A stretch of 59,946 nucleotides of DNA, the filler included. It is 3 parts of 3 records of this genome, joined end to end, with 100 filler letters (N's around TTAATTAATTAA, not from the genome) between each part and the next. Parts side by side here need not be neighbours in the genome. Positions count along the whole stretch, not along the records: positions 29,601 to 48,324 come from DRR723986_1313; 2 more parts are not named here. One strand, 5' to 3'. Below the pieces are notes generated by a model. The model was not told the origin of the DNA, did not search any database, and saw nothing but the letters and a program-made list of their open reading frames with translations. The position numbers were made by a program, and so were the translations under genes. Shown piece after piece: positions 3,613-36,802 of the stretch (positions are counted from its first letter, which is position 1; every line of letters starts with the position of its first letter).

Positions 3613-4464
3613 TTATCTTTGACCCTTTGCCGCCAATAGGACGGCGACCAACACCAACATCCCCCCGGCTAAGGTACGCGTGTGTGGAATTTCCGAGAGA
3701 AGGAGAAAGGCCAGAACTGGGGCCAGCGGAACTTCTAGCGTGCTGAGCAGCGCCGTCTGGCCAGAAGGGAGGCGTTTTGCGCCTTCGGCTAGGGTGACTG
3801 AGGCTATGGCAAAGACGAGGCCAAACGCGCTGAGTATCAGGATTTCGTGCATCGGAATTCCGAACGGGTCCCCAAATTTGAGCGCAACAGGCACGAGCAA
3901 TAAGGAAGACAGCGCAGCGGGACCGGCGCCTGGCGTTGTTGGGTACCTCCGATAGATCACCATCAAGACCGCCATTGCGATTGCCATGCCAAGGGCCAGC
4001 AGATCGCCGCGCAGATTTATCTGTCCGAGGGATCCTGACACGATGATCGTTACCCCAACAAGTGCGAGCAGCGAACCGGTAATGACGGCTTTCGATGTCT
4101 TCTCGCCAATCCAGAACCAGGCCAAGAGCGCGGCCAGCATTGGGGCGACTGCATAGATCAAAGAAACATTGGCGATTGTGGTCAGTTTGAACGCTGCGAT
4201 GAAAGCGGAAGTGCCAAGCGCGCCCACAATGGCGACTGCGACACCACTGATCCCCATTTTGGGAAAGTTGTCCCAAAGCTGCCCGCGATGCCAAACCCAG
4301 ATAGTCGTAAACCCGGCCGAGAATACGCCGCGCCAAAAAATGATGTCCCAAGGTGCGGCTTGCACCCCCTTGGCAAACAACCCGGCGGTGCTGAAAGTAA
4401 TCGCGGACATCACAACGAGCATAAGACCAAGCCCGTTTTGAGACTTTGGGAGCTGTGCGATCAT
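3613..4464 (-). CDS. DMT/EamA-family transporter
   Basis: About 10 hydrophobic segments in two EamA-like repeats; ATG overlaps the upstream stop (ATGA). Confidence 0.85.
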   Translation of the reverse strand: MIAQLPKSQNGLGLMLVVMSAITFSTAGLFAKGVQAAPWDIIFWRGVFSAGFTTIWVWHRGQLWDNFPKMGISGVAVAIVGALGTSAFIAAFKLTTIANVSLIYAVAPMLAALLAWFWIGEKTSKAVITGSLLALVGVTIIVSGSLGQINLRGDLLALGMAIAMAVLMVIYRRYPTTPGAGPAALSSLLLVPVALKFGDPFGIPMHEILILSAFGLVFAIASVTLAEGAKRLPSGQTALLSTLEVPLAPVLAFLLLSEIPHTRTLAGGMLVLVAVLLAAKGQR

Positions 4465-4928
4465 GCTTTGTCCGCCGCGCGCGCAATTGCAGTACCGTGG
4501 ATTTTCTGCGCATCGGGGCGGTTCCAATACTTGTTTGGATTGCCGGTGTCGCCTGTGTATCTGGACCGCGTGGCCCAGCATTCAGTGATGCGAATGGTCG
4601 GGTCTTCGTGGACGTGATTTTCAAGGATGATCGCGAGGGTCTGTTCAAGAAGCCGCCTGTCTGGTGCAATGGAAACTGTGATGTCCACCACCGGCACGGA
4701 TTGTATCGTATGTTCGGCCCCAGCGTGCGATCCTGCCAAGGCGCGAAACTGTTGCTCGCCTGGAGGCGAGACATGGAGGCAGCATTCATAATGACCTTGC
4801 TTTAGGTCCACGCTCTGACGCAGTGCATCAAGCAAAATGTCGTGCCCAAGTGTGGGCGTTTGGATCGTTATGACCCATTCCTTTTTCAGAAGCGCATCTT
4901 TCAAATTGATCTCAGCCAGAGCAGTCAT
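4461..4928 (-). CDS. Hypothetical protein, YqfO/NIF3-insert type; paralog of 3114-3572
   Basis: GHYECC, GEQQFRAL, HVHEDPTI and NPNKYWN motifs. Confidence 0.7.
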   Translation of the reverse strand: MTALAEINLKDALLKKEWVITIQTPTLGHDILLDALRQSVDLKQGHYECCLHVSPPGEQQFRALAGSHAGAEHTIQSVPVVDITVSIAPDRRLLEQTLAIILENHVHEDPTIRITECWATRSRYTGDTGNPNKYWNRPDAQKIHGTAIARAADKA

Positions 4929-4973
4929 TTGCAGTCCCTTATGTGTGCCCTTCTGGTTTATCGGTTGACCAGT

Positions 4974-5007
4974 CATGCATGTTTCGGATATTTCCGAAGT
5001 ATGCATG
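4974..5007. promoter_or_regulatory. Palindromic operator overlapping the ArsR start codon
   Basis: CATGCATgtTTCGGA-tatt-TCCGAAgtATGCATG, 13 of 15 positions symmetric, in a 72-bp divergent gap. Confidence 0.6.
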
Positions 5008-5708
5008 ATGAACCTTCCATGTCGCGTGTGGGGGCTTTGATAGGCTCACCGGCACGCGCTTTGATGTTAACGGAATTGTTCGATGGCCGTGCCTTGACAG
5101 CCACCGAACTTGCCGGTGTTGCGAGCGTTTCACCTGCAACTGCAAGTGAACACTTGAGCCTTTTGTTGTCGGGTGGGTTGGTGACGCGGGAAAAGAGTGG
5201 GCGGCACAATTATTACCGCCTTGCGTCTCCGGAAATCGCAAGCGCACTTGAACAGCTTGCCGTGCAAACCGCGAATATCACCCCTGCTGCAAAAACCACC
5301 CGAACAGTCCGGAAGCCAATTCAAAATGCCCGGATGTGTTATGATCACATCGCTGGGCATTTGGGCGTTTCGATTGCAGATGCTCTGGTGGAAAAGGGAG
5401 CCTTGGTTGCGTTGGACACGGATTATGAGCTGACCGCGAAAGGTACAGCGTTGTTTGCTGATCTGGGGATAAACCCTGCTGAATTGAAGCGAACGAAACG
5501 CGTGTTTGCGCGACAATGCTTGGATTGGAGCGAGCGCCGTCATCATGTCTCGGGCGCTGTTGGGGCTGCTCTTGCAGATCTGGCATTCGACCGGGGCTGG
5601 ATTGCCCGTGCGGCAGAACGCCGGGTCTTGATTGTGACACCGTTTGGGCAACGGGAAATGAAGGCCCTCCTTGGCGTCAATTTTGATCAGAGAGGACGAG
5701 CGGTTTAG
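5001..5708 (+). CDS. ArsR/SmtB-family regulator (YdfF-like, with second C-terminal domain)
   Basis: PARALML..ATELA..SPATASEHL..GRHNYYRL wHTH; ARMCYDHIAG and CLDWSERRHH motifs. Confidence 0.85.
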   Translation: MHDEPSMSRVGALIGSPARALMLTELFDGRALTATELAGVASVSPATASEHLSLLLSGGLVTREKSGRHNYYRLASPEIASALEQLAVQTANITPAAKTTRTVRKPIQNARMCYDHIAGHLGVSIADALVEKGALVALDTDYELTAKGTALFADLGINPAELKRTKRVFARQCLDWSERRHHVSGAVGAALADLAFDRGWIARAAERRVLIVTPFGQREMKALLGVNFDQRGRAV

Positions 5709-5748
5709 AAACCGGTTTTCAGTACTGCACCTCCAATTGATGCACGGT

Positions 5749-7698
5749 TCATGTGCCTGTGACTGCGGGGACCCAAATCGTGAAAATTGCCCCTCCTGTT
5801 GGTTGATTTCGGGCTGAAATACGCCCTCCGGTTTGCTGGATCAGAGTTTGACTTATGGAGAGCCCTAACCCAGTGCCTTCGCCCAGTTTGGTGGTATGAA
5901 AGGGGTCGAATACCCGTTTCATATGCTCTGCATCTATGCCGGGTCCCGTATCAGAAACAGACAGTTCCACGCCATCACGCTCATTCCTAGGCGATGGTTT
6001 GACCCTGATGTCCAGCTGACCGTTCCCCTCCATGGCTTGAATGGCATTGACCATCAGATTGACAAGGACCTGCTGCATCTCCCCAGTATCTATCGCAACA
6101 TTTGGTGCCGCATCAAATTGAGTGGAAATTTGCACGTTCTGTTGGGGATGCACGTGGGTGATTAGGCTTTTGCAGTCGTCGATCAACATTTCCAGCGATG
6201 TGCCTTCGCTGGAGGCCGAAAATTCAGTTGGGCGGGCAAATTGCAATAGCTTTCCAACGATCCCGTCAATGCGCTGTACCTGCTTATCGATCAGGGTCAA
6301 TTCGGTTTCCACGCCGGCGGCGTCCGGTCCCAGGGTCTGGCGCACGACGTCGACATTGCCCTGAATGACCGCAACTGGATTGTTGATTTCATGGGCAACC
6401 CCTGCAGTAATTTCCCCGATCGAGGCGAGCTTTTCAGAGAGCACCAATTGCTGGAATGTCTCTTCCAGCTTTTCATTGGCATCGCGAAGCTCTGAGGTGC
6501 GCCGATCAACGCGATCATTCAGCTCTTCTGCCCAACTGCGTAGAGCCTGATCCCGTTCTTGGACCTGATCAAGTAATGTATCTAGATGGGTTGCGACTTG
6601 GCTGATTTCATCCTTGGATCCGACGCTGCCGTTGCGCGCTGACAGATCCCCGTTCTCCACACGGCTCATGGTTTTGGTCATACGTTCTAGCGGCGAAAAA
6701 ATCCCGCGGGCCATCCTAAGGAAAAGCGGAATAGACAAGGCAAGTACGATGACCATGGCGGCGAGCATGGTTAGGTAAGCAGATTTTTTTGCGTTGGCAA
6801 ATGGCGCCTCTAAGAAGCCAACATACAGCATCCCAACTCGGTTTCCGAAACTATCAATGAGCGGCAGATAGCCCGAAATGTACCAATCGTTCACGACAAA
6901 GGCGCGGTCCAGCCAGGTTCGGCCCTGATCCAAAACGGCGGCTCGGACTTCGGCAGAAACGCGGGTTCCCAACGCGCGCACGTCTTCAAACAGGCGCACG
7001 TTGGTCGAAACACGAACGTCTTCGAGAAACAAGGTTGCGGTGCCCTGCCTTTCCCCGCCCGTCGCCGCATTGAGGTACACCAGCGCGTTGATGGTATCGA
7101 TGAAATCAAGATTCCTGTTCAGCAAGATCCCCCCGATCAGGACACCTTGATGCCCTAGCAGGTCAACGGGGGCCGCGGTATGGACCACCATGCCGCGATC
7201 CTCGACCACACGATCGGTGGGCACTGCGGCTTCGGTGTCGATCAGATCCACCCGCGCACGTTTAGCCAAGTCAGGGAAGTTGGCTATGGTATCGGCCGGG
7301 AAGATGTCAATTTGCGACGACAGCTCGCCCCCAAGCGCGGCCTGAACCACTGGCCAACGTTGGGCTTTGCCTGTCTGTGTCGCGGGAAGATAATATAGAA
7401 AGTCGAGCGCCTGCTGAACGCGTTGCTGTTCTAGGTATGCGGCTCTCGTCTCCGCTGGCCCGGTCAAGGCAAATTGGAAATGGCGGGAATCTGCAATGGC
7501 AGCGATACCTGCCCCTGTCCCGGCCAAAATGCGGCCCAGATATTGTTCGGCAATGCGTAAATCACTGTCGACTTTGGCAATCAAGAGCTCGTCGTAATCG
7601 GATGTCCAGCGGGTCATTGCCAGCAACATCAACAAGGGCAGTAAAACCACAAGAGGCGCCAGTGCGAGCACCAACAGTTTCAGGCGTACTGAATTCAA
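5749..7698 (-). CDS. Membrane sensor histidine kinase (Cache-HAMP-HisKA-HATPase), probable partner of the 1729-3075 regulator
   Basis: TTG start after GAGGGGG; two TM segments; AGVAHEINNP H-box; NLMVNAIQA; DTGPGI; GTGLGLSI. Confidence 0.85.
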   Translation of the reverse strand: MNSVRLKLLVLALAPLVVLLPLLMLLAMTRWTSDYDELLIAKVDSDLRIAEQYLGRILAGTGAGIAAIADSRHFQFALTGPAETRAAYLEQQRVQQALDFLYYLPATQTGKAQRWPVVQAALGGELSSQIDIFPADTIANFPDLAKRARVDLIDTEAAVPTDRVVEDRGMVVHTAAPVDLLGHQGVLIGGILLNRNLDFIDTINALVYLNAATGGERQGTATLFLEDVRVSTNVRLFEDVRALGTRVSAEVRAAVLDQGRTWLDRAFVVNDWYISGYLPLIDSFGNRVGMLYVGFLEAPFANAKKSAYLTMLAAMVIVLALSIPLFLRMARGIFSPLERMTKTMSRVENGDLSARNGSVGSKDEISQVATHLDTLLDQVQERDQALRSWAEELNDRVDRRTSELRDANEKLEETFQQLVLSEKLASIGEITAGVAHEINNPVAVIQGNVDVVRQTLGPDAAGVETELTLIDKQVQRIDGIVGKLLQFARPTEFSASSEGTSLEMLIDDCKSLITHVHPQQNVQISTQFDAAPNVAIDTGEMQQVLVNLMVNAIQAMEGNGQLDIRVKPSPRNERDGVELSVSDTGPGIDAEHMKRVFDPFHTTKLGEGTGLGLSISQTLIQQTGGRISARNQPTGGAIFTIWVPAVTGT

Positions 7699-26044: not shown

Positions 26045-26138
26045 ATTTCTCGATCCAGATGCAATCGCAGATCGGCATCGTTAAGCGGCCATTTACGAGT
26101 TGAGCATACTTTTGACGCACAGAACGTCGGAGGATGCC

Positions 26139-26684
26139 ATGAAAGGCGTTGTTTTTGTTGAACTATTGCGGATGGCTGAGTCTGTTTTAGGCGAAGATGC
26201 TGTGGATCAGGTACTGGATCAGGTCGATTTAGAATCCAATGGTGCCTTTAGCGCGGTCGGCAACTATCCGTGTCGAGAGCTTCTTAGTTTGGTTGACGCG
26301 TTCGGAGCGCGCCTTGATGCACCGCCAGAAGCTTTGCAGGTAAAGTTTGGACATTGGATGTTCGGCCGGTTCGTTGAAGGGTACCCCGAATTTTTCGAAG
26401 GCAAACGGGATGCCTTCGAAATGCTTGAGGCAATCGAGGGCGAAGTTCATGTCGAAGTGAGGAAACTGTACCCAGAGGTAGAGCTTCCGAGTTTTGCCAC
26501 CGAACGTCCGCTCCCATCGCAATTGCGCATGGTTTACGAATCTGACCGCCCCTTGATGCATTTCTGCCTCGGCTTGATCGAGGCCTGCATCGCGTACTTT
26601 GAAGATCAGGCAGATATTAAAATGGAAGAACAGTCGACCCCAGGAAAGTTTCGAGCCGAGTTTTTGATCCAAAAGGCGGCCTGA
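26139..26684 (+). CDS. Heme NO-binding (H-NOX) protein
   Basis: MKGVVF, EVHVEVRKLYP (proximal His), LPSF, YESDR (YxSxR), CLGLI. Confidence 0.9.
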   Translation: MKGVVFVELLRMAESVLGEDAVDQVLDQVDLESNGAFSAVGNYPCRELLSLVDAFGARLDAPPEALQVKFGHWMFGRFVEGYPEFFEGKRDAFEMLEAIEGEVHVEVRKLYPEVELPSFATERPLPSQLRMVYESDRPLMHFCLGLIEACIAYFEDQADIKMEEQSTPGKFRAEFLIQKAA

Positions 26685-26689
26685 GCTGA

Positions 26690-28051
26690 ATGTCTGAAAC
26701 GTCTCATCCGTCACCTCCAACGGTGTCTCGCCGCCGCTATGAACGAGCCCTGATCGCCAGAGAAGAGGCCGAGCGGTTGCTAGAGGCCAAAAGCCGGGAA
26801 CTGTATGAAGCCAATCAAGGATTGCTGAAGTCCAAATCGTGGCTGGAAAACGCGGTTCAAGAACGCACTGTTGAGCTTGAAGCAGCCCGTATCGCTGCCG
26901 AGGCGGCGAACGAAGCCAAATCTGTCTTTCTGGCCTCTATGAGCCACGAAATCAGGACCCCTCTGAACGGAATATTGGGGATGGCATTGGCGCTGTCAGA
27001 AAATGGGCTCACGAAAGAGCAAGGTGCGATTGTTGATGTCATTCGAGACAGCGGCTCGCTTTTGCTGTCTGTCCTAAATGACATTTTAGATCTCTCCAAA
27101 ATTGAGGCTGGAAAGCTCGAATGTGAAGAAGCGCCGTGTGACTTGTCAGACCTCTTTGGGTCGATTGAAAAACAGTACCAGCTGAACACTCAAGAAAAGG
27201 GATTAGAATTCCGGGTGTCTGTTCCCAAGGGGGCTGGCAATTGGGTGAAAACGGACGCCACGCGTTTGCGCCAAGTTGTTGGGAATTTGTTGTCCAACGC
27301 GATCAAATTTACGGACACGGGGTGCGTTACGCTGACCGCCAAGGTAACCCCTTGTGCCGACGGGAAGTCTAAGCTTACGATAACAATTACTGATACGGGC
27401 CCGGGCATTTCTAAAATTCAGCAAACGCGGTTGTTCAAGCCATTTTCGCAGGCAAATACCAGCATCACCCGCAATTTTGGTGGAACAGGGCTTGGCTTGG
27501 TCATTTCTCGTAGAATTTGCGAGACTATGGAGGGAACCCTTACTCTGAAAAGTGAGGCAGGTCAGGGGGCGGAATTCGTGTCTTCGGTCTTGGTTGAACC
27601 CTGTGCCAGTGAAGCAGCAGTCGATGAAACTCAGGATCGCGATGAGGCGGTGCTTACCAGTACGAAATGGCGCGTTTTAGCAGCCGAGGACAATCGCACC
27701 AATCGCTTGGTTCTGCATCATATGCTCAAGCGCTTTGACCTGTGCCTGGACATAGCCGAAAACGGAGAGCAATTGATTTCACGCTGGCGGGCGGAACCTT
27801 GGGATTTGATTCTGATGGATGTGAACATGCCGGTCATGGACGGGCTGCGGGCGACGCAGATCATTCGTGATCAAGAGCATGAGCAGCGCAAGACGCCGAT
27901 CCCAATTATCGCGGTGTCGGCAAATGCCATGTCACATCAGGTTAATGGATATCTGGCGCACGGGATAACGGATCACGTGGCCAAACCGTTGCGCCGCGCC
28001 GAACTTGTCCGGGCGATGGCAACGGCTTTGACCTCAAAAACTTTCGATTAG
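26690..28051 (+). CDS. Soluble hybrid histidine kinase (HisKA-HATPase-REC), H-NOX-associated
   Basis: [43 protein letters not shown]; no TM. Confidence 0.9.
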
Positions 28052-29080: not shown

Positions 29081-29500
29081 ATGGGCTTTAAAATGGGAAT
29101 CGTGGGTCTGCCCAATGTTGGCAAGTCGACCCTGTTCAACGCGTTGACTAAAACCGCAGCAGCACAGGCGGCGAATTTCCCGTTCTGCACAATCGAACCC
29201 AACGTAGGTGAGGTCGGCGTACCAGATGCGCGCCTTGATAAACTCGCCGCGATTGCGGGATCAAAGCAGATCATTCCAACGCGCATGACTTTTGTGGACA
29301 TTGCTGGCCTCGTCAAAGGCGCGTCCCAAGGCGAAGGCCTGGGCAACCAGTTTCTGGCTAACATTCGGGAAACTGACGCGATTGCGCATGTATTGCGCTG
29401 TTTCGAAGACGGCGATGTGACCCACGTTGATGGCCGCGTGGACCCGGTAGAAGATGCCGAAACCATCGAAACCGAACTGATGCTGGCCGACATTGAAAGC
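29081..29500 (+). CDS. ychF: Redox-regulated ATPase YchF, truncated by the gap
   Basis: [50 protein letters not shown]. Confidence 0.97.
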
Positions 29501-29600
29501 NNNNNNNNNNNNNNNNNNNNNNNNNNNNNNNNNNNNNNNNNNNNTTAATTAATTAANNNNNNNNNNNNNNNNNNNNNNNNNNNNNNNNNNNNNNNNNNNN
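29501..29600. other. Assembly gap with artificial six-frame stop linker
   Basis: N-run containing TTAATTAATTAA. Confidence 0.97.
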
Positions 29601-29884: not shown

Positions 29885-30988
29885 TCATCCCTCGTCGGAT
29901 GGAGCATCCGAAAACGTTAAGAGGTTGCGCATTTGTTCGTCCAACCGGGGCTGAACACTGCGCCGCGCCCTTGTAATTTTGGCCCGCTCCTCCAATCGAC
30001 GAGAAAGCGTGTCGATATCGAGATCACGTAATTCCAACCATTGCACCAAAGCGCCTTGATCATGCAGGGCGCGATGTTGACGGAATTCAGAAACCTCGCG
30101 TGCAAGATCGCCCAAGGGAACAGGGCTCGGTGATTGCCGGTCAAGTGCCAGTGCCAGTTCCGCGATCTCAGCATCGGCTCGAACCCGCTCGAATCCCTCG
30201 GGAGAGGCTGCACGCAACCTTTCAAGGGTATCAGGATCGCTCGCGGGACACTCCGAAACGACCTCGGTTAGCAAGGTGTCGAAAGCGTCCGAATGCTGGA
30301 ACTCAAATGGCGCCGCAACTGGCAGCGCACCTGCATCAAAATCAGCTGCGACACGCTCTAAGCAGGCCCGAGCATCAATGTTTTTTTGATCAATTCGCCC
30401 CGTCGACAACCAAACACGAAACCCCTCGGCGGTATCTGGATCAATCTTGGAACACGCTGCTAACAGCGCGTCATAACTCCGGTTTGGATAAAATTCAGCC
30501 TCGGTCATGCGCAGCAACTGGGCCGCAATCTCAGGGCGCAAGATGGCCGTTGTAACGGCCGCGTTAAGGGTCCAACGAATATTCACCAGCGGCTCTGAAA
30601 GGTAAGAATACGCCACTTCCTTTGGCGCGTGGGTCAGCGCAACCTCATCGTCTCTGGTAAGCGTACCATCAACGAAGGCGTCAAAGATTTCCCCAACACC
30701 GACCATCCCGAAACTGTGCAGCTCAGCGGCCCGCAAGGCCCCGGTTGAAGCCGCGCCATAGACGGGAATCCCTGCATCCAGCGACCAAAGGATTTCTTTG
30801 TGATAGACGGCAGGAAACGCCTCAAAGAACCCATCGATCAAAACAATCGCAGCCGGGCGCAAGAGAGCCGCGCGCAACACATCGCCTTGGGCAGCGGGGC
30901 CAAGCCTCTGAATCGGAAGTTTACCTTCCACCTCGCACGGGACCGGCAGCGACGGGCCTGCAAACACGACAATGTTTTCGCCATTCAT
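29885..30988 (-). CDS. tfuA: TfuA-like protein with C-terminal extension
   Basis: VFAGPSL, PAAQGDV, LIDGFF, HKEIL, VYGAASTGALRAAEL, DDEVALTH, LVNIR, FYPNRS, DQKNIDA. Confidence 0.9.
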   Translation of the reverse strand: MNGENIVVFAGPSLPVPCEVEGKLPIQRLGPAAQGDVLRAALLRPAAIVLIDGFFEAFPAVYHKEILWSLDAGIPVYGAASTGALRAAELHSFGMVGVGEIFDAFVDGTLTRDDEVALTHAPKEVAYSYLSEPLVNIRWTLNAAVTTAILRPEIAAQLLRMTEAEFYPNRSYDALLAACSKIDPDTAEGFRVWLSTGRIDQKNIDARACLERVAADFDAGALPVAAPFEFQHSDAFDTLLTEVVSECPASDPDTLERLRAASPEGFERVRADAEIAELALALDRQSPSPVPLGDLAREVSEFRQHRALHDQGALVQWLELRDLDIDTLSRRLEERAKITRARRSVQPRLDEQMRNLLTFSDAPSDEG

Positions 30989-32202
30989 TGGTACGCCCTC
31001 AAGGCCAAAGCCCGCGCGCCCGGTTTATACCCGGGGGCATCAGATGTGCCTTCTAATCCCGGCACCAGAACTCTGACGACTGAGGCCGGAATATCAGCAA
31101 TGGACAAATCCACGACCACAGGGACCCCAAGCCCCGCCCGACTAAGGGCCGCAAGCATACAAGAGAGGGCCTGATCCACCCCCAACACGGGGTGCGTGCA
31201 GATATCAGAAAAACGCCGGAGGGCTGAGCCATCGACGATTTCAGCCCGCTGCGCCTGAAGGGTCGTTGCGCCTCGCATTTTGCGATAAGACGCCCGCGAC
31301 CGATCATCCCGCGCGCCAGAGATCAACGTCAGGCGGCTTTGTGCGGCTTCGGTCAAAGCGCGTGACAGCGCGCTTCCGCGATCTGGATGAGCCCCCGAAC
31401 CCGAGGCGGCGTGCAGGCCCCTACGTGCATCATCGACCCTGTCAACGATGGTGACAAAGAAAGCAGGTATTTCAAGGTCCGATGTCACGTCCCAAATGGC
31501 ACACGCCACGCCTGCCCTGTCGAACCGCGCAAGAAGATCCATGCAGGCGGGATCATCAACCGTGTCGAGGTCCACGCGACGTTCGGACGGACCACTTGGC
31601 TGGTGCCGCCAGAGCGTGATGGCATCTCGCTCGATCGCCTCAGCGAGGGCTTGTGCGACGGCAGCGTCAATACTCATTCCAGCCGCAAGGCCGGTCGAGG
31701 ACATCAAAAAGCAGCCAAGCCGTGGGGGCAATGGCAGCGTATAATTCATGTGGATCACTTCATAAGGCACCCAAACAGGGCGACCCCTACCAACGGGTTT
31801 TCCCTCAGCCCAGAGCGCCGTGCGATCCCTTGGAATCGGCTTGCCTTCTAACAGCGGCAGACGCTCCAGAGGAATGATTTCACCCCCTAAAGACAGCTCA
31901 TTAGCCGTCGCAAGGCGCAAGGGGATCACGGGTGTCTCAGCGCAACTCAGCTCCACCGCTTCCATGATAGCGGAAGTTTTGGCGTCTTCGAGGGTCGCGC
32001 CTTTTCCCTGAGTGATCGCCAGAGACCGGGCATTGGGCCGATGTGCGGCACAGACCGGTATCCCGATGGCATCCAATCCGGTCAGGTCGGCCACCCGCGT
32101 AACACCAATCTTGGGAAGGTGGGGCAAAATCCGATCAAGTACGTCTTTAGATGAAACAGCGTGAAGAGCCGCCACGCGCCCTTGTTCGAATTCTTGCCCC
32201 AT
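30985..32202 (-). CDS. ycaO: YcaO-family protein, TfuA-associated (thioamide-forming) type
   Basis: GVTRVADLTGLDAIGIPV, QGKG, SAIMEAVE, SSTGLAAG..EAIERDA, RALTEAAQSR..ISGARDD, VPGLE; no PxP tail. Confidence 0.9.
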   Translation of the reverse strand: MGQEFEQGRVAALHAVSSKDVLDRILPHLPKIGVTRVADLTGLDAIGIPVCAAHRPNARSLAITQGKGATLEDAKTSAIMEAVELSCAETPVIPLRLATANELSLGGEIIPLERLPLLEGKPIPRDRTALWAEGKPVGRGRPVWVPYEVIHMNYTLPLPPRLGCFLMSSTGLAAGMSIDAAVAQALAEAIERDAITLWRHQPSGPSERRVDLDTVDDPACMDLLARFDRAGVACAIWDVTSDLEIPAFFVTIVDRVDDARRGLHAASGSGAHPDRGSALSRALTEAAQSRLTLISGARDDRSRASYRKMRGATTLQAQRAEIVDGSALRRFSDICTHPVLGVDQALSCMLAALSRAGLGVPVVVDLSIADIPASVVRVLVPGLEGTSDAPGYKPGARALALRAYQ

Positions 32203-32207
32203 TGTCT

Positions 32208-32519
32208 TTAGCTGGGTGACTTTGAACCACGGATGAACTTATGATTTTGCTTCAACCCATCAATGTTCACCAAATAGCAGGTGCCCATCGGCTCCACTTT
32301 TCCCGCCGGCAAATAGTCTGTTGGCGGAATTGTGGCAAGATTTACACCACATTGAAGCAGATCCCTCACGAGCGACCAGCCCTCGTGGTTTTCGTAATCT
32401 TTCGGATCAATTCTATATTCATCTCGATCCCACACATCTCTGGGAATGTGTAGAACTGTCCCATCATCACTTGCGATAATTAGGTCATGACGAAAACCTT
32501 CAAGATCATTATTTGACAT
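32208..32519 (-). CDS. Small 103-aa hypothetical protein, candidate YcaO/TfuA substrate
   Basis: GGAGG RBS before MSNNDLEGFRHDLII...; stop 5 nt before the ycaO ATG. Confidence 0.75.
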   Translation of the reverse strand: MSNNDLEGFRHDLIIASDDGTVLHIPRDVWDRDEYRIDPKDYENHEGWSLVRDLLQCGVNLATIPPTDYLPAGKVEPMGTCYLVNIDGLKQNHKFIRGSKSPS

Positions 32520-32652
32520 CAATTCAATCCTCCAAAATGTATCTGGTTTCAGTAGACCAAAAAAGCGGGCTTGCAACAAGGGTTTCGAAAATACGCTGAT
32601 CCACCCCCTGAAACCGAGCCCTATTCCACCACATTTCAGAGACGTTTTCGGG

Positions 32653-35600
32653 TCATAAAAAGTGAAACTCTCGGGCGGCAGCAATAAGCTCCGCTGACTT
32701 TTCCTTCATATTACCTTCGTCACGTCCGGCGGCCATCGTTGAAATTTCGGCGGCAATACCGCGTATCGCCTTTGGAAGGATTTGTTGACTCGAGTCGATC
32801 ATGCGGGCGCAAAGATCGGGAACTTTGAGAATATCGTTTGCGGATGTGCTGAGTGCAATCAACGGGAGAATTACCGACCACTCGAACGGGTAAGCAATCG
32901 AAGCTTTGTCGAACTCTGCCAAGGCTTCTGCCGCAAAAGAACGAGCTTTCTCAACGGATCCGCGGCGCCAGGCGGCCCAAGACAGGTTGGATTTTGCCAA
33001 GCCCACATATTCATGCATTCCCAACTCAACAGCTAGGGCAATGCTCTCATGCGAGAGCGCCAGCGAGTCAGAGATTTCGCCCATGCGCCTATGGATTGTC
33101 GCCAAATAGGTCATGCAGCGAACTTCGATCTTTCGATGCCCAGAGGCGCGCGCAGAGGCCAAACTGGCATTCATTGCGACACAGGCTTCATTCAGCTGTG
33201 CGCTGTGCAATCTAACAAACCCCTGAATGAACTGAGCCGATGCAATCGTTGCCAGATTGCCAGTCTCCATCGCCGCAGACACATAATCCTTGGCCGTTGT
33301 ATGGGTTTCTTCCGTGGGCGCGTATCGGGACATCCTAAGGTCACGCAACACCAACTGGTCATAGTATTCAGCCCGCTGTTCGGGTGTCATTCGGTCAACC
33401 AAAGGGGCAAGATTGGCCGCAAGCTCCAGCATAGTTTCGCCGTCGCCGCTCCAGTAATGAACATTGAGCCTGTTTAGTTGGATATCAATCCACTCGCACA
33501 GCAACTCTGTATCGTCCTGCCAGTTGGTTTCAATCAAAACACTTTCCGCTATAGCAAGCTCTGCAAGAGATCCATGGCGATCTTGTTGCAGCGCATTGCC
33601 CGCGAGGCGATGAAGTCTTGCAATGCGAAGGACATCGCCCCCAGAAATCTCGGCAGCTTCTCTAAAGGCCGCAACTGCATCCTCAAGGTCGTGCACCAAT
33701 GTCAGGACCGAGCCGAGCTGCTCTAGCAATTCAACGCGGCTTGGCAACGCGCTCGAATTTCCGCCCTCGGTTAAGTCAACTCGGTCAAGGTAGGACAACG
33801 CCGTTTCATAATATGCTTTGGCTTCTGTATTCGCGTAACGGGACCGCGCCAATTCTGCCGCTTGGCAGAAACATCGGGCTGCTTCGGCATGATTGCCCGA
33901 TAATCCCCAATGGTTCCCAAGCACATGCCCGGGCGTGCTTTTTCGGAAACTTGACTTAAGGACCGTGGCAACCCGTGCATGCACCATCGCACGAACAGAA
34001 CGCAGCATGGTTTGATAGGCCGCGTCTCGCATCAGCGCATGTCGGAAAGAATATGTCCCCGGCGTATGGGCCTTGGGCACAATAATTTGCGCCGCTACCA
34101 GCACCCCCAGATTTTCCTGGAGATCTGACTTCGCCTCTTCTATCACCGCTGACAGAGTTTCAAGCGAGAAGTCGCGCCCGATCGCCGCCGCCGTCTGAAG
34201 GATCCGCCTGGATTCAGGATACCTATCGAGACGGGCAATCAACAGCTCGCTCAATGAGGTCGGAATCGCAGAGGTATCCATTGAAACATCCTCGCCCGGT
34301 TTCCGGTCTAGAACTTGTGTTTCAATAAATGACTTTGACAGCTCTTCAGCAAACAAAGGAATTCCGTCTGATCTCTCAATCACCACTTCCAGAACCCGTA
34401 CTGGCAAAGGTTGTACGCCATAAACATTGGCCGCAATCTCGCCGATCGCTTCATTGGAAAGTCGTTTCAGCGCAATACGCCGGATGCGTACGCTGCCTTC
34501 CCAATCTGCCTGAAAATTTGGCCGGCAGGTGAACACCAGCATGACCGGATCAGCTTTAACCACCTCTACCAACCGCCCAAGAAGATCTTTGGTGGTCGGG
34601 TCCACCCAATGCAAATCTTCAAACACAAGCAGGACTTTTTTGCCGCTCACATACCATTTAAGCAATGCAATAAGCGCTTGAAGCGTTACTTCTTTTTGTC
34701 CCTGCGCATCACGCGTCAGATCCGTTTCATTACTGTTTTTTCGAAACCCGATAAGCGCTTCCTGAAGCGAGGCTCTTTTGTTTTGGTCCAGCGTTGTAGA
34801 AGCAAGAAATTCCTCCAATCGATCAACCTCAGTAAGGTCGCCCGATTGAGGCCCCGCAAGGATGCGTGACCAAATATAGGTGTAGATCGGGTAGAGCGCA
34901 TCGTTGGTATGAAAGGGCGAACAATGAAAGCACATAACTCTGCCATCTTGTTCTAAAACTTGGGAAGAAAACTCTTCGATCAACCGCGATTTTCCGATTC
35001 CCGGCTCTCCGGACAGAACCATTGCCTGGCGCTGCTCTTGCCCGATACGACGCCAGGTCTCGTTAAGATCTGCTAGTTCCGCCTTTTGGTTTGTAATTGG
35101 CAGCTTCGTATGAGGATCCCGTTCAAGCCCTGCGAACGTTTCATCAATTATTCCGTCAACACGCCAAACCTTTATCTGCCCCTTGAACCCTTTCAACTTG
35201 TGATCACCCAGATCAAAAAAAGCGAACTTGTTCTCTACAATTTCCTTTGTTTCGTCAGAAATTGCCACGGTCCCCGGATCAGCCATCAACTGAATTCGCG
35301 CAGCTAAGTTCGGGGCACGGCCAACGGCTTGGTCTTCTTCGACATAGGAGTTTCGAATGTGATCGCCGACCACAACGTTCCCTGTAGCAATACCAATGCG
35401 ACAATTCATTTTGTTGCCATGCTGTTTGCTCAGTAATTGCATCGCATCCGTAATCCTAAGGCTAGATCGGATCGCACGCTCAACATCATGTTCATAGGCT
35501 TGTGGCCAGCCAAAATATGCAAGAACTCCATCCCCGAGATATTGTGAGATAAAGCCGCCGTATTCTTCGGTAACCTCGGTGACGACACTTTTAAAATCAC

Positions 35601-35952
35601 TCAATAATGCAGTCAGCTCCTCGACTTCGAGCTGTTCAGACAGCTGCGTCGACCCGACCAGATCAGTGAACACCACAGAAAGCTGGCGCCGTTCCTGACT
35701 TCGCGCATTGGGCTGATGTTCTTTTCTCTTTGCGACATGGCCATTTGCGAAATCGTGGACGTGATCGTGGCGCAAGAATGCGATGGCATCCAAAAGTTGT
35801 CGCCGGTGCCCAACTGATGCAATCCCCAAATCCCGGAGATCCTGTGCCGTAATCGAAGGCAGAATTGAACTGGTGATATCATGCTCGTGGAAAACAGCCG
35901 CATAACGGCTCAACCCAAGCGACCCAAGCCAATCATCAATGTCGATTTCCAT
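32653..35952 (-). CDS. SAM domain - class III nucleotide cyclase - STAND (AAA) ATPase - TPR protein
   Basis: WLGSLGLSRY..F SAM; FTDLVGST, GDG and NLAARIQ cyclase; GEPGIGKSRL; LVFEDLHWVD; GIPLFAEEL; YSFRHALMRDAAY; TPR-like tail. Confidence 0.9.
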   Translation of the reverse strand: MEIDIDDWLGSLGLSRYAAVFHEHDITSSILPSITAQDLRDLGIASVGHRRQLLDAIAFLRHDHVHDFANGHVAKRKEHQPNARSQERRQLSVVFTDLVGSTQLSEQLEVEELTALLSDFKSVVTEVTEEYGGFISQYLGDGVLAYFGWPQAYEHDVERAIRSSLRITDAMQLLSKQHGNKMNCRIGIATGNVVVGDHIRNSYVEEDQAVGRAPNLAARIQLMADPGTVAISDETKEIVENKFAFFDLGDHKLKGFKGQIKVWRVDGIIDETFAGLERDPHTKLPITNQKAELADLNETWRRIGQEQRQAMVLSGEPGIGKSRLIEEFSSQVLEQDGRVMCFHCSPFHTNDALYPIYTYIWSRILAGPQSGDLTEVDRLEEFLASTTLDQNKRASLQEALIGFRKNSNETDLTRDAQGQKEVTLQALIALLKWYVSGKKVLLVFEDLHWVDPTTKDLLGRLVEVVKADPVMLVFTCRPNFQADWEGSVRIRRIALKRLSNEAIGEIAANVYGVQPLPVRVLEVVIERSDGIPLFAEELSKSFIETQVLDRKPGEDVSMDTSAIPTSLSELLIARLDRYPESRRILQTAAAIGRDFSLETLSAVIEEAKSDLQENLGVLVAAQIIVPKAHTPGTYSFRHALMRDAAYQTMLRSVRAMVHARVATVLKSSFRKSTPGHVLGNHWGLSGNHAEAARCFCQAAELARSRYANTEAKAYYETALSYLDRVDLTEGGNSSALPSRVELLEQLGSVLTLVHDLEDAVAAFREAAEISGGDVLRIARLHRLAGNALQQDRHGSLAELAIAESVLIETNWQDDTELLCEWIDIQLNRLNVHYWSGDGETMLELAANLAPLVDRMTPEQRAEYYDQLVLRDLRMSRYAPTEETHTTAKDYVSAAMETGNLATIASAQFIQGFVRLHSAQLNEACVAMNASLASARASGHRKIEVRCMTYLATIHRRMGEISDSLALSHESIALAVELGMHEYVGLAKSNLSWAAWRRGSVEKARSFAAEALAEFDKASIAYPFEWSVILPLIALSTSANDILKVPDLCARMIDSSQQILPKAIRGIAAEISTMAAGRDEGNMKEKSAELIAAAREFHFL

Positions 35953-36151
35953 ACCGTCTCTTACCGCATTTTTCGTCGATGGCACCTGATAGATACGACG
36001 AGGCGCGCCCTTCCCTTACGTCCAATTCCCCATCCACCGAATGTCGCGGCAGGGAATTCATCTTTCAAAATCAGGTGCTAAATAAATACCATTACGAAGC
36101 AATCTCCATTATGATGGCAACTATATCAATATCAAGAGAAAGACAGATATC

Positions 36152-36802
36152 ATGGCCAATTCACTGAATCTTCTTGTTGTGGGGACTGGAAACGTCGCCT
36201 GCGCTCTTGTTCGCCGTTTTGCTGCGACCGATAACACCGTTTCCATCGGGTCGCGCGATGCTGATCGCGGGGCCGAGGTAGGCACCAGCCTTGGTGTCAA
36301 CGGCGGGGCCGCATCAGATCAGGTGAACAACGCGGATGTCATTTTCCTGGCGGTACCGTTTACCGCTCTGGATGAGACCGTAGAAGCGCTCGGTCCTATG
36401 ACGGGCAAGATCGTCGTCGATTGCACAAATCCTTTGACCGAAGACTACCTGGCTTTAACCCACGGCCACACCACATCGGCCGGTGAGCAATGCTTGGCAA
36501 AGCTGCCCGAAGCACGCGTCGTCAAAGGCTTTAATGCCATTTTCGCAGATGTCGTACACACCAACACGCAGTATAACGGCATGAAACCACAGATCTTTCT
36601 TGCGGGCGATGACACCGAGGCCAAAGGCGTTGTGTCGGATCTGGTTCGGGCAATTGACTACGAACCTGTTGACAGCGGTCCAATGAAAAATGCGCGTTAT
36701 GTTGAGCCGCTCGCGGAATTGATTATTCAGCTCGCGTATGTGCAAGGCGAAGGCACCCAGATCACACCGATTATCATGCGCAGTTCCGCTGATCCGGCCT
36801 AG
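36152..36802 (+). CDS. NADPH-dependent F420 reductase-like oxidoreductase
   Basis: VGTGNVA, GSRD, FLAVP, VDCTNPL, VVKGFN, AGDD. Confidence 0.85.
   Translation: MANSLNLLVVGTGNVACALVRRFAATDNTVSIGSRDADRGAEVGTSLGVNGGAASDQVNNADVIFLAVPFTALDETVEALGPMTGKIVVDCTNPLTEDYLALTHGHTTSAGEQCLAKLPEARVVKGFNAIFADVVHTNTQYNGMKPQIFLAGDDTEAKGVVSDLVRAIDYEPVDSGPMKNARYVEPLAELIIQLAYVQGEGTQITPIIMRSSADPA

Follow-up and report, generated by a model that had tools for sequence, protein, structure and literature searches.

A 103-amino-acid protein (P0001), which belongs to a family without a name, is encoded directly ahead of a TfuA-associated ycaO gene in the window, our term for the whole 59,946-nucleotide stretch of DNA that was analysed. 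The small gene is part of a conserved cassette. Its constant core consists of the small protein, YcaO, TfuA and a STAND ATPase, in which cyclase and kinase heads can replace each other; the TfuA partner and this shared core were present in 12 of the 12 related loci with enough flanking sequence. From this linkage we tentatively propose, at slightly less than an even chance, that the neighbouring YcaO-TfuA enzymes have the small protein as their dedicated substrate, a protein encoded together with them. The features of the cassette are collected in Table 1.

Table 1 Features of the small-protein cassette in the window.
Feature	Position	Strand	Basis
Small-protein gene (P0001), 103 aa; family without a name, candidate YcaO-TfuA substrate	32208..32519	-	Translation, homologues, purifying selection
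Shine-Dalgarno sequence GGAGGA, 8-nt spacer to ATG 32519	32528..32533	-	Direct sequence reading; GGAG-like purine-rich stretches in related loci
Codons of Cys81-Tyr-Leu-Val-Asn85, motif C-[YWF]-[LVFI]-[VLI]-N, predicted beta-strand 81-84	32265..32279	-	Alignments of 30 + 25 sequences; AF2
ycaO, 405 aa, TfuA-associated, thioamidation-like	30985..32202	-	PF02624 at 1.3e-72, residues 65-384
tfuA, 367 aa, TfuA domain 52-171 and C-terminal extension of ~150 aa	29885..30988	-	PF07812 at 2.5e-42
1110-aa protein with SAM domain, class III nucleotide cyclase, AAA_16 (STAND) ATPase and TPR	32653..35985	-	Pfam, TIGR03903
Divergent NADP oxidoreductase, 216 aa, F420_oxidored-like	36152..36802	+	PF03807 at 2.4e-16

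The longest form of the small reading frame starts at TTG 32684, ends at the stop at 32208 (-), would encode 158 amino acids and overlaps the 3' end of the STAND gene (32653). The first-pass annotation had placed the true start at ATG 32519 and not at 32684, with a GGAGG ribosome-binding site of its own, and our results agree: GGAGGA lies at 32528-32533, the homologues align from the Met, and this aligned Met is the start in 16 of 16 close homologues. A GGAG-like purine-rich stretch precedes the ATG in all nine genomic homologues; at L003, for which the script picked an ATG 33 nt further upstream, the stretch was judged at the start common to L002 and L004. Pairwise comparison of the window and nine loci (4348 codon comparisons) gave 1020, 727 and 2205 differences at codon positions 1, 2 and 3, respectively, indicating that the frame is translated and selected. 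The ORF is real and under purifying selection, and its best homologue matches go down to E = 1e-45. Its stop is followed after a gap of 5 nt by the ATG of ycaO at 32202, in keeping with the annotated place directly ahead of ycaO, and 133 nt separate it from the end of the STAND gene. The segment EPMGTCYLVNI, described earlier as the C-terminus, turned out to be residues 76-86, after which 17 more residues follow (DGLKQNHKFIRGSKSPS). A separate promoter for the small gene did not emerge from the scan of promoters and terminators, which was at chance level (6 sites versus 4.3 ± 2.1 expected, and 10 versus 8.4 ± 3.5).

The contig that carries the cassette stops some 285 nt past tfuA, and gene content farther on can be checked in relatives only. 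Positions 29501-29600 of the window are an N-run with a six-frame stop linker (TTAATTAATTAA) in its middle, which marks a contig join and thus at least two contigs, and a YchF-like GTPase ORF (29081-29548) is cut by this join. Positions 26100-28051 (+) hold a 194-aa ORF, which we take to resemble an H-NOX-type sensor partner, followed at once by a 453-aa ORF resembling a hybrid histidine kinase/receiver.

Pfam and NCBIfam gave no match to the small protein, even when 19 members were scanned at E up to 5. Sixteen relatives were found among 90%-identity clusters and 18 representatives at 50% identity (E up to 0.001, 1.84 billion proteins searched), and a profile search with the family returned 26 proteins, every one of them named 'hypothetical', from Sinorhizobium, Rhizobium, Archangium, Pyxidicoccus and metagenomes. 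The family is rare, with about 26 clusters at 90% identity in Alphaproteobacteria, Myxococcota and metagenomes; an even phylum sample contained it in 1 of 401 genomes, the centre genome only, and each of the five carrier genomes has a single copy.

Among the 16 close relatives, nearly all positions of the small protein are conserved, including G79-T80-C81. When 30 sequences were aligned, and likewise with 25 diverse ones, only Gly58, Cys81 and Asn85 were invariant after the start Met, and Tyr82, replaced by W or F at most, was nearly so; the CYLxN motif is thus conserved at its Cys, its Asn and, nearly, its Tyr. In distant relatives, Gly79 gives way to A, I, D, M, C, V or L and Thr80 to F, M, A, V or I. 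The Gly-adjacent M-G-T-C segment, previously put forward as the candidate site, is therefore not supported, as Gly79 and Thr80 are invariant only in the 16 close homologues. Should a conserved site exist, our best guess from the alignments is that it would be the C-Y-L-V-N strand rather than Gly79, because Cys81 and Asn85 are the conserved residues capable of chemistry. The C-terminal tails after the motif vary across the family and are rich in Lys/Arg in several members.

Some members have a modified architecture. In P0038 (metagenomic, 560 aa), the sole long form among 8000 scored candidates, a domain of the P0001 type, with the segment ACYLVNL, follows a Peptidase_S8-type domain as an in-frame C-terminal fusion. 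P0044 (Pyxidicoccus trucidator, 218 aa) contains a tandem second copy of the domain, with the motif MGVLVNL, in which the Cys is lost and the Asn kept. P0034 (L019, 6962-7372) has an additional hairpin-like segment at its C-terminus, beyond the motif.

From an alignment of 30 sequences, AF2 predicted a small alpha/beta fold (mean pLDDT 79.5, pTM 0.63), which supports the earlier impression of a globular protein. The predicted elements are beta-strands at 13-16 and 22-25 and three short helices at 27-30, 39-44 and 46-56, followed by beta-strands at 61-64 and 81-84, the latter being the CYLV motif, and a helix at 86-89. A first AF2 model based on the 16 close sequences was discarded (pLDDT 55.5, C-terminus below 50, motif region unstructured). 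With the retained model, Foldseek found no neighbour in the PDB (best E = 0.31) and VIA-align against 48,161 chains found no Z of 2 or more; the ESM Atlas contained no usable match. These empty fold searches are evidence neither for novelty nor for a wrong model. Homology to beta-propellers was rejected: a profile search of PDB sequences matched designed 'Cake' propellers and BamB/PQQ blades to the N-terminal hairpin only (positions 11-34), which we read as a probable generic DG-turn hairpin, that is, a resemblance at the motif level.

The linkage of the small gene was evaluated in two sets of loci. A pattern scan with one genome per species yielded nine loci (L001-L009) from three Ruegeria, Ensifer adhaerens, two Rhizobium, two Sinorhizobium and one MAG, and the order STAND-cyclase gene, small gene, ycaO, tfuA was found in all nine. 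A metagenome scan with distant members yielded five loci, two of which, L015 (1.4 kb) and L016 (1.1 kb), were too short for linkage; in the three evaluable ones (L017, L018 and L019, of which the last two are near-identical and represent one lineage), the small gene lies directly before ycaO-tfuA with a kinase-STAND gene upstream, and the small-protein relatives are 28-44% identical. The neighbourhood on which the earlier substrate proposal hinged, homologues beside ycaO-tfuA, is thus found in 9 of 9 genome loci and 3 of 3 evaluable metagenome loci. In L017 and L019, a Ser/Thr-kinase-AAA_16 protein, which resembles the STAND/TPR part of the window protein, replaces the cyclase version. The small protein is the best conserved member of the cassette, with 57-76% identity to its counterparts in L001-L009, compared with 45-66% for YcaO, 43-58% for TfuA and 37-63% for the STAND protein.

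The close linkage to the STAND gene speaks against a substrate in that the small protein could serve the STAND protein and not YcaO. It might then bind or regulate the STAND-TPR switch in unmodified form, its adjacency to ycaO reflecting operon packaging. The small gene has the STAND gene on one side and ycaO on the other in 12 of 12 loci, and it is retained whether the head is a cyclase or a kinase, as would suit such a role. However, insertions part the small gene from the STAND gene and never from ycaO. An IS481-like transposase gene (L003, 5200-8000), an opposite-strand AMP-binding enzyme gene in two pieces (L006 and L007, 6007-7610) and a trypsin-like peptidase gene, also on the opposite strand (L001, 7076-7933), each lie between the STAND gene and the small gene, whereas no insertion between the small gene and ycaO was found in the evaluated loci. 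Together with the gap of only 5 nt in the window, this makes a mere STAND ligand very improbable.

Beyond the four genes of the cassette, the only further gene common to all nine loci L001-L009 is the oxidoreductase homologue, which was not seen in L017 or L019. In L017, positions 4435-6845, between the kinase-STAND gene and the small gene, encode an NmrA-like NAD(P)-binding protein and a B12-binding radical SAM enzyme, which hints at additional modification steps in this lineage.

No protease or exporter common to the nine alphaproteobacterial loci was found, and this bears on whether the small protein is a classical RiPP precursor, in which residues 1 to ~78 would be a leader and the C-terminal motif a core that is modified, cut and exported. 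Its length and its position ahead of the enzymes are typical of such precursors, and those of the NHLP-Burk system, likewise paired with a kinase/cyclase STAND protein, have about 110 amino acids (PMC2887384, accessible part). Proteolysis would be favoured in some lineages by the S8-type peptidase fusion in P0038, by the S8/pro-kumamolisin peptidase gene ~5.8 kb upstream in L019, where a MatE pump gene also lies nearby, and by the trypsin-like gene that precedes the small gene in L001, on the side of the STAND gene. These peptidases are sporadic (L001, L019, P0038), though, and the protein is conserved over its full length and predicted to fold, with the C-terminal motif as its most conserved part. 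Nor does it contain a Gly-Gly or other cleavage motif, only the variable tails lying beyond the motif, and we regard a classical precursor as quite unlikely. Conservation extends over the whole of a protein predicted to fold, and neither a protease nor an exporter is conserved with it; a modified product would therefore most likely be intracellular.

The best NCBIfam match of the window YcaO is methan_mark_1 (TIGR03266, McrA-glycine thioamidation) with 186 bits and E = 9.8e-55, a score that does not reach the cut-off of 365. The match to the SagD-type cyclodehydratase model is weaker (3.6e-34), and the S12/EcYcaO-type model NF040716 gave 28.4 bits only. The closest solved chain is MJ1094 (6pe3) at 1.1e-21, ahead of TruD and LynD (1.4e-16) and of MusD. 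Judged by these matches, the window YcaO is nearer to the thioamide-forming than to the azoline-forming YcaOs. The window TfuA, whose gene overlaps the end of ycaO by 4 nt at its start, scored 183.7 bits with NF033432, below the cut-off of 235.2. That both enzymes score under the cut-offs of the McrA-type equivalogs counts against the substrate proposal. The C-terminal extension of TfuA (29885-30328, residues ~220-367) weakly matches TIGR04500, 'putative peptide maturation system protein' (E = 0.0018); it is present in many relatives and missing in the 246-267-aa TfuAs of L019, L056 and L057. For the 1110-aa STAND protein, the best NCBIfam model is TIGR03903 (TOMM_kin_cyc) with 383.6 bits, under the cut-off of 705.75; the match spans profile positions 282-928 only, and the N-terminus is a SAM domain, with no kinase.

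These scores also help to weigh a different chemistry on the same substrate, namely a thiazoline between residue 80 and Cys81, possibly then reduced by the NADP oxidoreductase, or an amidine at Asn85, and no thioamide. The invariant Cys is a hallmark of azoline sites and is no less compatible with such a site, or with sulfur relay, than with a thioamide site, a point against the main proposal; Asn85 is invariant too. A reductive step could draw on the oxidoreductase conserved in the nine alphaproteobacterial loci, or, in L017, on the NmrA-like reductase and the B12-radical SAM gene in the same position. Against this, a TfuA partner accompanies the YcaO in 12 of 12 loci, the YcaO scores favour the thioamide types (9.8e-55; 1.1e-21) over SagD, TruD and LynD (3.6e-34; 1.4e-16), and neither an E1-like/ocin-ThiF partner nor an FMN dehydrogenase was seen among the cassette genes. 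An azoline or amidine in place of a thioamide is, in our judgement, improbable.

The association with YcaO is restricted to part of the YcaO family. In 400 scored genomes (family of G002), 93 had a YcaO at E up to 1e-60, and among the best 30 of these YcaO loci, a member of the small-protein family within 1.5 kb was detected at the centre genome locus only (hmmsearch, E up to 10), so that the small protein belongs with a single subclade of YcaO. A sister YcaO (402-485 bits, ~40% identity) with a TfuA, and without a conserved upstream ORF, occurs in 22 genomes. Six of these sister loci, from genomes of the Rhizobiaceae-family sample, were enlarged (L053-L058): a conserved protein of 407-466 aa without a Pfam match comes after TfuA in all six, a protein of 185-300 aa is next in four, ending in SGARV x8 in L056 (5009-5605, -), and cyclase-TPR or cyclase-STAND genes lie nearby. 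This SGARV-repeat protein (P0037) is unrelated to the small protein (hhalign probability 0.2%), which itself has no repeats. In a quick maximum-likelihood tree of 41 YcaOs, which has long branches and for which the 'repeat' label has been confirmed at 6 of the 22 loci, the small-protein-linked and repeat-linked YcaOs form a joint clade (SH-aLRT 99) apart from seven others. Within it, the ten alphaproteobacterial small-protein-linked YcaOs group together (SH-aLRT 94), and those of L017 and L019 are basal to the repeat-linked ones. Because the module of the nearest YcaO relatives has a different substrate-like protein, this clade may well carry protein substrates of its own.

The sister clade is also relevant to the possibility that the small protein assists YcaO-TfuA instead of being modified by it, acting either as an adaptor for another target or as a persulfide or sulfur-relay carrier through Cys81. 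Such a role would account for the single invariant Cys of the family, a fold predicted to be compact with the motif strand in its interior, and the tight packing with ycaO, which suits a subunit; moreover, sulfur delivery to YcaO enzymes is often unresolved, according to the accessible text of PMC13063428. Yet the sister YcaO-TfuA clade works without the small protein and carries the substrate-like repeat protein instead. The small protein has variable C-termini and no C-terminal Gly-Gly of the ThiS/MoaD type, it matched no sulfur-carrier family in Pfam or NCBIfam at E up to 5 (19 members) and no known fold, and an accessory role leaves the invariant Asn85 without explanation. We consider an accessory unlikely.

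Returning to the proposed substrate, YcaO would use ATP to phosphorylate or adenylate a backbone amide oxygen of the small protein, and TfuA would help to deliver sulfide, so that the amide oxygen is exchanged for sulfur and a thioamide results; this mechanism follows the McrA and thioamitide systems (PMC8939145 and PMC13063428, in their accessible parts). The modified place would most likely lie within or beside the Cys81-Tyr-Leu-Val-Asn85 strand, not at the variable Gly79, and the modified small protein would most likely stay in the cell instead of being a secreted peptide. A plausible partner is the linked STAND switch: its TPR domain may bind the modified protein, and the output would come from its cyclase or kinase head. 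In the alphaproteobacterial version, the divergent NADP oxidoreductase may contribute a further step. That the STAND-TPR protein senses something connected with the small protein is speculation, prompted by the exchangeable output head on a constant STAND-TPR body. The first-pass annotation had called the 103-aa protein a probable thioamidation substrate. The substrate role stays plausible in view of the linkage to ycaO-tfuA and a YcaO closest to MJ1094, while the M-G-T-C site is not supported. Two further points weigh against a substrate. The motif is predicted to be an internal beta-strand and not a free tail, which may hinder access by YcaO, and TfuA has a second clade without characterised members, as the accessible part of Malit et al. 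(PMC8120280) reports.

A more specific version of the substrate proposal, which we regard as unlikely, combines these elements. Here the small protein would be a folded cytoplasmic protein with a backbone-modified Cys-Tyr-x-x-Asn strand, in which the YcaO-TfuA thioamide and Cys81 possibly form a soft-metal- or redox-sensitive site, and would be read by a STAND TPR sensor that answers with cAMP or phosphorylation, making it a third kind of YcaO protein substrate. If true, a backbone post-translational modification would be coupled to a signalling circuit instead of antibiotic production. To our knowledge, thioamidation by a YcaO enzyme has been established for just two proteins, methyl-coenzyme M reductase and, since 2026, the ribosomal protein uL16, and we know of no substrate for most proteobacterial YcaO-TfuA pairs. 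The small-protein family offers a candidate that is encoded beside its enzymes and small enough for intact-mass MS, and its carriers Ruegeria, Sinorhizobium and Ensifer are harmless and tractable. The constant STAND link with interchangeable cyclase and kinase heads suggests a connection between backbone modification and signalling, and literature searches returned no description of a link of this kind.

Neither the literature searches nor the accessible part of PMC8120280 contained a description of the small-protein family or of the cassette. The antiSMASH survey in the latter, as far as its accessible part goes, includes many proteobacterial TfuA clusters and may include the window cassette without naming the small protein; the terms CYLVN, CWLVN, Ruegeria and Ensifer are absent from one of its supplementary files, and its other supplements could list the cluster.

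The cassette can be compared with several known systems. The repeat-tailed sister module is alike in having the nearest YcaOs (~40% identity) and cyclase-TPR or STAND genes nearby; in contrast to the window, its substrate-like protein is encoded downstream of TfuA after the 407-466-aa protein, ends in tandem repeats and is unrelated to the small protein. The actinobacterial thioamidated RiPPs, thiovarsolins and thioamitides, also place a YcaO-TfuA pair beside the gene of a ribosomal substrate (PMC8120280, accessible part), but their precursors are short, with variable or repeated cores, and are cleaved, whereas the window candidate is conserved, predicted to be foldable, has one invariant motif and is accompanied by no conserved protease.

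The NHLP-Burk system of Haft et al. 2010 comprises a large kinase/cyclase STAND protein, precursors of ~110 aa and a YcaO-type enzyme, with no transporter (PMC2887384), and, on the accessible part of that paper, it is the closest described architecture to the window cassette. Both have the order STAND/TPR protein, precursor-like protein of ~100 aa with a Cys near the C-terminus, and YcaO-family enzyme (TIGR03795/TIGR03903 in NHLP-Burk), and this gene order also occurs in L020 with a true TIGR03795 protein. They differ in that NHLP-Burk has a fused cyclodehydratase-docking protein where the window has a stand-alone YcaO and TfuA, and in that the window STAND protein scores under the TIGR03903 cut-off and carries a SAM domain where the kinase would be. 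An assignment of the small protein itself to NHLP or NHLP-Burk was rejected: 19 members gave no TIGR03795 match at E up to 5, and hhalign against the L020 TIGR03795 protein gave a probability of 1.1%. A W-x-x-[DE]-E-[FY]-[KR] stretch considered as motif 1 of Haft et al. was also dismissed, its resemblance not being kept in distant relatives.

In E. coli, YcaO thioamidates the folded ribosomal protein uL16 at Met82 through recognition of its tertiary surface, and the authors expect that more YcaO protein substrates remain undiscovered (PMC13063428, accessible text). The earlier statement that known protein thioamides lie at or beside Gly (MCR; Met82 followed by Gly83 in uL16) agrees with that text. 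The window resembles this case, also from Pseudomonadota, in the thioamidation of a folded bacterial protein, for which the small protein is a candidate; unlike E. coli YcaO, which according to the same source acts without TfuA on a substrate encoded at an unlinked gene, the window has a TfuA and an adjacent candidate. Lastly, the McrA thioglycine system of methanogens (MJ1094, PDB 6pe3/6peu) shares with the window a YcaO-TfuA pair, a protein target, putative in the window, and McrA-type models as the best match. The window enzymes differ in scoring under the equivalog cut-offs (186 versus 365 and 183.7 versus 235.2), and their candidate target is a dedicated, adjacent 103-aa protein without similarity to McrA, linked to a STAND switch.
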